The position numbers and the translations under genes are program-made. Shown in pieces: positions 20,055-20,074 of a stretch of DNA of 20,473 nucleotides. The notes beneath the pieces were generated by a model. The model was given only the letters and a program-made list of their open reading frames with translations, searched no databases and was not told where the DNA came from. The DNA is from Escherichia coli (GTDB lineage Bacteria > Pseudomonadota > Gammaproteobacteria > Enterobacterales > Enterobacteriaceae). Position 1 is the stretch's first letter; every line of letters starts with the position of its first letter. The stretch lies in NCBI RefSeq assembly GCF_003334315.1, contig NZ_QOWR01000068.1. One strand, given 5' to 3'.

Positions 20055-20074
20055 TTAGGATTTTGTTATTTAAA
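20055..20074 (+). promoter_or_regulatory. GAD box (GadE/GadX-dependent activation site) of the gadB promoter
   Basis: Exact 20-mer TTAGGATTTTGTTATTTAAA, 80-99 bp upstream of the gadB ATG. Confidence 0.8.

Follow-up and report, generated by a model that had tools for sequence, protein, structure and literature searches.

The gadBC promoter of Escherichia coli K-12 carries a 20-bp upstream element, the GAD box (Castanie-Cornet & Foster 2001; Ma et al. 2003; Seo et al. 2015), which has been described at this position since 2001 and whose biology became known between 2001 and 2010. A second GAD box precedes the paralogous gadA gene; in K-12 this gene is located in the acid fitness island beside gadX, gadW and gadE, whereas gadB is located after pqqL. 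Related elements include sites bound by RcsB together with a second LuxR/FixJ-type protein, as in the RcsB-RcsA (RcsAB box), RcsB-BglJ and RcsB-MatA pairs, which, like the pair considered here, occupy an asymmetric site of ~20 bp ahead of the -35 element; in the GAD box, it is the left half that resembles an RcsB half-site (PMC2887963). Unlike at other RcsB sites, the partner is GadE and basal RcsB suffices, activation of the Rcs pathway leading to repression of the gad genes. The position of the GAD box, centred at -62.5 upstream of a weak promoter, is furthermore similar to that of class I activator sites (CRP at -61.5), and a CRP-like mode of action of RcsB-GadE, including contact with the C-terminal domain of the RNA polymerase alpha subunit, may be envisaged by analogy only.

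Here we analyse the corresponding promoter in a 20,473-nt stretch of E. coli DNA (contig NZ_QOWR01000068.1, assembly GCF_003334315.1; hereafter the window). The GAD box found in it is real, functional and already known, being the K-12 GAD box base for base: it shares with the K-12 gadBC element the same 20 bases, the same gene and the same distances. We put at about 0.93 the probability that the gadBC promoter has in this 20-mer its GAD box, an activator site of class-I type that is centred at -62.5 and bound by RcsB-GadE.

Genomic setting and anatomy of the gadBC promoter

From base 1400 onward, the window aligns at 99.65% identity (64 mismatches and one gap) with K-12 MG1655 at 1.57-1.59 Mb, read as the reverse complement, and represents the region ydeT...ydeP-safA-ydeO-ydeN-ydeM-yddA-yddB-pqqL-gadB'. 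The gene order follows K-12 and strain E2865 as annotated; across the 681-bp query that covers the gadB upstream region (19793-20473), E2865 matches the window at 100% identity. The fimbrial genes ydeT (2201-3349), ydeS (3363-3893), ydeR (3906-4409) and ydeQ (4468-5382) are followed by ydeP (5716-7995), safA (8243-8440), ydeO (8515-9276, + strand), which encodes an AraC-family regulator, and ydeN (9678-11360). Next come ydeM, which ends at 12569 and whose annotated start has no mapped window coordinate, yddA (12860-14545), yddB (14583-16952) and pqqL (16997-19792). The fimbrial cluster ydeQRST and the yddA-yddB-pqqL cluster are thus located, according to the annotation, where the earlier note on this DNA had placed them. 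That note had also described the second cluster as resembling an iron-import operon. No Fur box within 3 mismatches of the 19-bp consensus is present in the window, the best match (GCTAATGATAACCATTCCC at 12856-12874, 4 mismatches) overlapping the yddA start codon, and this label is therefore not supportable from a Fur site alone. The 5' part of gadB (glutamate decarboxylase B) occupies 20154-20473 (+) and runs off the window end. The reading frame that opens with the ATG at 20154 translates into the N-terminus of GadB and is annotated as gadB in K-12 as well as in genomes 100% identical to the window over the query; gadC follows gadB in a genome that shows no difference from the window across 19793-20473 (681 bp).

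Several features set the left part of the window apart from K-12 or from strain E2865. Positions 1-1399 differ from the corresponding part of K-12, which carries yneL and hipAB there; bases 1 to ~226 correspond to the end of an IS1 element (median of 10 copies per genome), and positions 327-1334 on the minus strand code for a hypothetical protein of 335 aa whose N-terminus is hydrophobic and signal-like. This left-end junction is common to only 21 of 5426 E. coli genomes, where the open reading frame is likewise annotated 'hypothetical protein'. As in K-12, ydeT (2201-3349) is a truncated usher fragment of 382 aa. Strain E2865 possesses at the same position a full-length usher gene, of which 2242 bp fall within the fetched stretch and which extends further upstream; the ydeQRST fimbrial cluster of the window is therefore degenerate. 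In strain E2865, moreover, an IS1203 (4542-5755 of its locus, L001) has inserted in the ydeQ-ydeP interval, immediately before the regulatory region of ydeP, and the window is free of this insertion.

The spacer between pqqL and gadB is 361 bp long and poor in G+C (30.5% vs 43.8% for the whole window). It contains TTAGGATTTTGTTATTTAAA, an exact 20/20 match to the GAD box, at 20055-20074 (+), identical in all of its letters to the string printed in PMC4918353; the sequence occurs once in the window, where no second site with up to 3 mismatches exists. The box extends from -72 to -53 of the gadBC promoter, where it is the activating site of RcsB-GadE. It ends 79 bp before the gadB ATG (20154), and its 3' end (20074) is separated from the -35 hexamer by the canonical 16 bp, the distance reported in PMC2887963. 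With the transcription start at 20127, a position taken from the K-12 literature, its centre falls at -62.5. The geometry is canonical and agrees with that of the published promoters, which bears out the earlier note's claim of an intact GAD box at the expected distance upstream of gadB. Compared with K-12 gadBC, the interval between the box and the ATG (about 80 bp) is identical and the element itself is without differences; over 235 aligned bp there is a single difference, at 20001. At this position, 54 bp upstream of the GAD box, the window has C and K-12 has T, the C being common to many other strains.

Downstream of the box, the 16-bp spacer (20075-20090, +) is conserved in length and not in sequence. 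It is followed by the -35 hexamer TTGCTT (20091-20096, +), with 3/6 matches to TTGACA, and, after 17 bp, by a putative -10 hexamer, TACTTT (20114-20119, +), assigned by its position; the C preceding it creates a sigma-S-like CTACTTT. This putative -10 ends 7 nt before the presumed transcription start at 20127 (+), which lies 27 nt before the ATG according to the K-12 literature. This placement is taken from the gadB leader RNA used for work on CsrA, whose first base is numbered -27 with respect to the start codon (PMC11210196), and the published ChIP-exo peak centre of -62.5 also maps to a start at 20127. The Shine-Dalgarno sequence AAGGAG (20142-20147, +) includes a GGA motif bound by CsrA, toeprints of which have been found over the gadB Shine-Dalgarno (PMC11210196). 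When 19700-20473 was scanned with a generic sigma-70 promoter model, the gadB promoter was not called. Together with the 3/6 matches in both core hexamers, this result fits a weak, activator-dependent promoter, and the promoter assignment consequently rests on published positions.

The core promoter also carries an RcsB box, CGATAAATCCTAC (20104-20116, +), a repression site for the RcsB homodimer that abuts or overlaps the -10 element. It matches the motif (G/C)GATAAATCCTAC, which is found upstream of or overlapping the -10, and differs from its gadA counterpart GGATAAATCCTAC solely by a C for G at the left end. The same difference at gadB is stated in PMC2887963, in which the footprint was performed on gadA and high levels of RcsB were found to repress through this separate box at the -10. 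The RcsB box is kept across the Escherichia promoters aligned, and CTTGC is invariant in all 11 of the aligned gadA and gadB promoters.

At the other end of the spacer, directly 3' of the pqqL stop codon, we detected a terminator-like hairpin (19799-19823, +) with a 10-bp stem and a folding energy of -18.6 kcal/mol (z = -5.0 vs shuffles). It is followed by ATTTTA, with only four Ts, and was not detected by a terminator scan. The hairpin is conserved among E. coli strains, the changes seen in divergent lineages being compensated or wobble pairs, and probably insulates the gadBC promoter from upstream transcription.

Proteins acting at the promoter

Occupancy of the box by GadE is documented in K-12. 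The published GadE ChIP-exo data (Supplementary Table 1) place a gadBC peak at 1570144-1570175, centred at -62.5, labelled 'Act' and causal on knock-out. These K-12 coordinates map to positions 20049-20080 of the window, centred on the GAD box, under an assumed offset of 1975 bp between MG1655 versions that was checked only by the agreement at gadA (1974.5). The signal-to-noise ratio of the peak is low (2.78). In the same study, deletion of gadE in K-12 reduced gadB by 6.44 and gadC by 5.85 log2 units. The MEME motif derived from the GadE ChIP-exo data, TTARGAWWWWAAATA, has no match to the GAD box within 2 mismatches; its five matches in the window, vs 2.56 expected, are near chance, and the motif is no useful detector of the GAD box.

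The composition of the activating complex has been dissected at the gadA promoter (PMC2887963). There, RcsB and GadE together produce a footprint from -50 to -76 with an apparent Kd of ~10 nM, and mixed-tag EMSAs indicate that the complex contains the two proteins in equal amounts. Replacement of G by C in the conserved left part of the box abolishes both binding and GadE-dependent activation, and replacement of TT by CC in the right half has a small effect only. The window box, being identical in sequence, keeps the Gs of TTAGGA. Carried over from the footprint, EMSA and point mutations at gadA, binding of RcsB-GadE to the gadB box is strongly suggested by this identity.

The original model of 2003, implicit also in the earlier note's step from GadE to gadB, held that a GadE homodimer alone binds the box and that RcsB has no direct part at this site. 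In its favour are earlier observations of MBP-GadE binding to the GAD box, cited in PMC2887963, and the GadE ChIP-exo occupancy says nothing on the identity of the partner. At gadA, however, MBP-GadE alone protects neither of the two boxes, and the earlier binding was explained by RcsB contaminating the GadE prepared from wild-type cells (PMC2887963). The equal proportions of the two proteins in the mixed-tag EMSAs and the likeness of the left half of the box to an RcsB half-site also speak against this model, and we consider it very unlikely.

Even less probable is that the 20-mer serves mainly as an operator for the competing AraC-type regulators GadX and GadW and is not a GadE site. These proteins do have a place at this promoter: the GadX ChIP-exo peaks obtained at gadBC in K-12 are centred at -184, -225, about -268 and +66 and map to 19882-19963 and 20173-20213 of the window, the former interval (+; peaks P6 and P7) constituting the GadX/GadW binding region. 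None of the peaks is located at -63, however, and the GadX/W motif matches a different sequence, AGGTCTGATTTTTACGTGAT at 19907-19926 (+), with one mismatch to the published motif AKGKCTGWTWTTWWYMYVAK. This is the only match in the window and is weak on its own, 9 of 100 shuffles having also produced one; it is situated inside the mapped P6/P7 region, in a GadX/W block that is conserved in the intergenic alignment. The contribution of GadX is moreover less than 2-fold, compared with more than 50-fold for GadE (PMC4918353). The gadBC promoter is thus also tuned by the upstream GadX/GadW sites, by the RcsB box at the -10 and by CsrA acting on the leader. GadX ChIP-exo peaks assigned to ydeN (repression) map elsewhere in the window, to 9400-9425 and 9562-9592 in the ydeO-ydeN spacer, which makes ydeN a second window gene with input from a Gad regulator.

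With RcsB-GadE as the activator at the GAD box, induction would proceed as follows. In an acidified exponential culture, GadE would rise through EvgS/EvgA, YdeO and gadE, and in stationary phase through RpoS/GadX/GadW. The accumulated GadE would pair with unphosphorylated RcsB, and the heterodimer would bind the GAD box and recruit or stabilise RNA polymerase on the weak core (TTGCTT, 17 bp, TACTTT), upon which transcription of gadB-gadC would increase roughly 50- to 90-fold. The GadE occupancy of this spot, the GadE dependence of gadB mRNA and the requirement for RcsB, the last with biochemistry carried out on gadA, come from the K-12 literature; we infer that the source strain behaves likewise and that the contact is of the class-I type.

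Conservation of the box between paralogues, strains and species

The earlier note had proposed a comparison with the characterised gadA and gadB promoters. We aligned the window with the gadB and gadA promoters of K-12, and the 20-mer proved identical in all three, with no divergence. The K-12 gadA box also has the identical 16-bp spacing to its CTTGCTT -35 region. In the adjacent spacer, by contrast, gadA and gadB agree at only 1/16 positions, and on the upstream side of the box the two promoters are unrelated throughout, to the point of being unalignable. Similarity resumes from the -35 onward, the 63 bp between the -35 and the ATG being highly conserved. In the 18-kb acid fitness island of K-12, a search allowing up to 3 mismatches to the GAD box retrieved the gadA box itself and no other site.

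Within E. coli, divergent strains were chosen without regard to the box, as the most divergent matches of a 681-bp BLAST search (87-97% identity). The exact 20-mer is present at all five of the divergent loci obtained in this way, among them that of CFT073 and a single gadA locus. The gadB upstream regions of six E. coli sequences, namely four divergent strains, the window and K-12, were then aligned. Variable columns are absent from the box (0/20) and amount to 17/60 immediately upstream of it, 3/16 in the spacer and 51/262 in the rest of the spacer region. A 30-mer query comprising the GAD box and 10 upstream bases, for which full identity was required, was recovered from 5365 of 5426 complete E. 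coli genomes (~99%); the gadB upstream region is present in 5401 complete genomes, ~36 of which are without the exact 30-mer. Six copies of the gadB promoter region including this 30-mer reside on plasmids in complete E. coli genomes.

When one genome from each of 100,044 species was searched, the exact 20-mer was encountered in 11 places. Eight of these are in Escherichia (two divergent 'E. coli' lineages, E. albertii, E. whittamii and Escherichia sp. E1V33), and all eight are located upstream of gadA or gadB at a distance fixed within 1 bp, with much more divergent flanks; across Escherichia, 11/16 columns of the 16-bp spacer between the box and the -35 vary. Since the exact box itself served to retrieve these Escherichia loci (L004-L010 and L013), they are biased in its favour, the unbiased evidence being the five divergent loci (L015-L019) and the genome count. 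In E. albertii (L004) and E. whittamii (L013), the exact box was found only at a gadA-type gene, the gadB promoter being absent or carrying a variant box. The other three exact matches, in two Bacteroidales MAGs and one Lentisphaeria MAG, fall within open reading frames that no gad gene follows; given this location, the AT-rich nature of the 20-mer and the 298 Gb searched, we regard them as chance matches. Among the species representatives, the 20-mer is accordingly found upstream of a gene only in Escherichia, and there at gadA or gadB.

The GAD box is thus a discrete conserved block with diverging flanks, a footprint visible both between paralogues and between species. A search of Rfam returned no RNA family above threshold anywhere in the window, so that no known sRNA accounts for the conservation. 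The invariance of all 20 positions at both promoters, in ~99% of E. coli and in sister lineages, hints at an additional constraint. As it includes right-half positions where the TT-to-CC change only slightly weakened binding in vitro, the box could conceivably be read by something besides the RcsB-GadE heterodimer, which we regard as improbable; a higher-order 'complex III' or a competing regulator using the right half are speculative candidates for such a reader.

The identity of the box between gadA and gadB and between strains might also be viewed as a by-product of gene conversion or recent common descent and not of selection. In keeping with this view, the coding regions of the two genes are very similar, and the stretch of 63 bp from the -35 to the ATG also shows high conservation. 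Yet the box is flanked by a spacer with 1/16 shared positions and by unalignable upstream sequence, which is the opposite of a conversion tract, and such an isolated island of identity is therefore the signature of a protein-binding site. The island pattern furthermore recurs in divergent Escherichia lineages, and functional data also exist, leaving this explanation with a negligible probability. A chance origin of the match is ruled out, none being expected by chance and none appearing in 100 dinucleotide-preserving shuffles of the window.

The GAD box within the acid-resistance cascade

Expression of gadA and gadBC is governed by a cascade that runs from EvgAS through YdeO to GadE, and YdeO no longer induces gadA and gadBC when gadE is mutated (PMC4222967). 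The only regulator of this cascade encoded in the window is ydeO, the link between EvgA and gadE. It is separated from gadB by about 10.9 kb and five genes (ydeN, ydeM, yddA, yddB and pqqL) not known as members of the cascade. In K-12, gadE belongs to the acid fitness island, some 2 Mb distant, and evgAS and rcsB also lie outside the window.

The EvgA consensus, reportedly established by Masuda & Church (2003) and Itou et al. (2009), is TTCYTACANNTGTARGAA, an 18-bp inverted repeat with the arms TTCYTACA and TGTARGAA around two unspecified bases. Two candidate repeats of this type were found at the places where the earlier note had put EvgA-type sites: TGCCTACAGCTGTAAGAA (8114-8131, +), upstream of safA-ydeO and with 1 mismatch, and AGCCTACACCTGTAAGAA (5455-5472, +), 244-261 bp upstream of the ydeP ATG at 5716 and with 2 mismatches to this consensus. 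The two matches compare with 0.30 expected, and 3 of 100 shuffles reached the same number. A further sequence near ydeP, TTAGGATTTGTAATA at 5674-5688 (-), is similar to TTAGGATTTTGT, which makes up the left half of the GAD box; it has the inverted orientation and lies 28 bp upstream of the ydeP start codon. This likeness could be due to chance, as about 0.16 occurrences of a 9-mer are expected in the window.

The earlier note had summarised the right half of the window as a compact regulatory cascade leading from EvgA to YdeO to GadE to gadB. What stands of this description is that ydeO, the EvgA targets and a GadE target are indeed contained in the window and that the order of the cascade is as published (PMC4222967). 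Its compactness does not, with gadE, evgAS and rcsB encoded outside the window and 10.9 kb lying between ydeO and gadB, and the last step belongs to the RcsB-GadE heterodimer and not to GadE alone (PMC2887963). RcsB is accordingly to be added to the cascade, and gadE and evgAS are to be set outside the window; its final arrow is better read as RcsB-GadE acting on a promoter that GadX/W, RcsB and CsrA also tune. For the strain from which the window derives, the intact box means that its gadBC promoter is wild type, and nothing more. The system that the element so preserved controls is the most effective that E. coli has for acid resistance, the one that enables its passage through the stomach.
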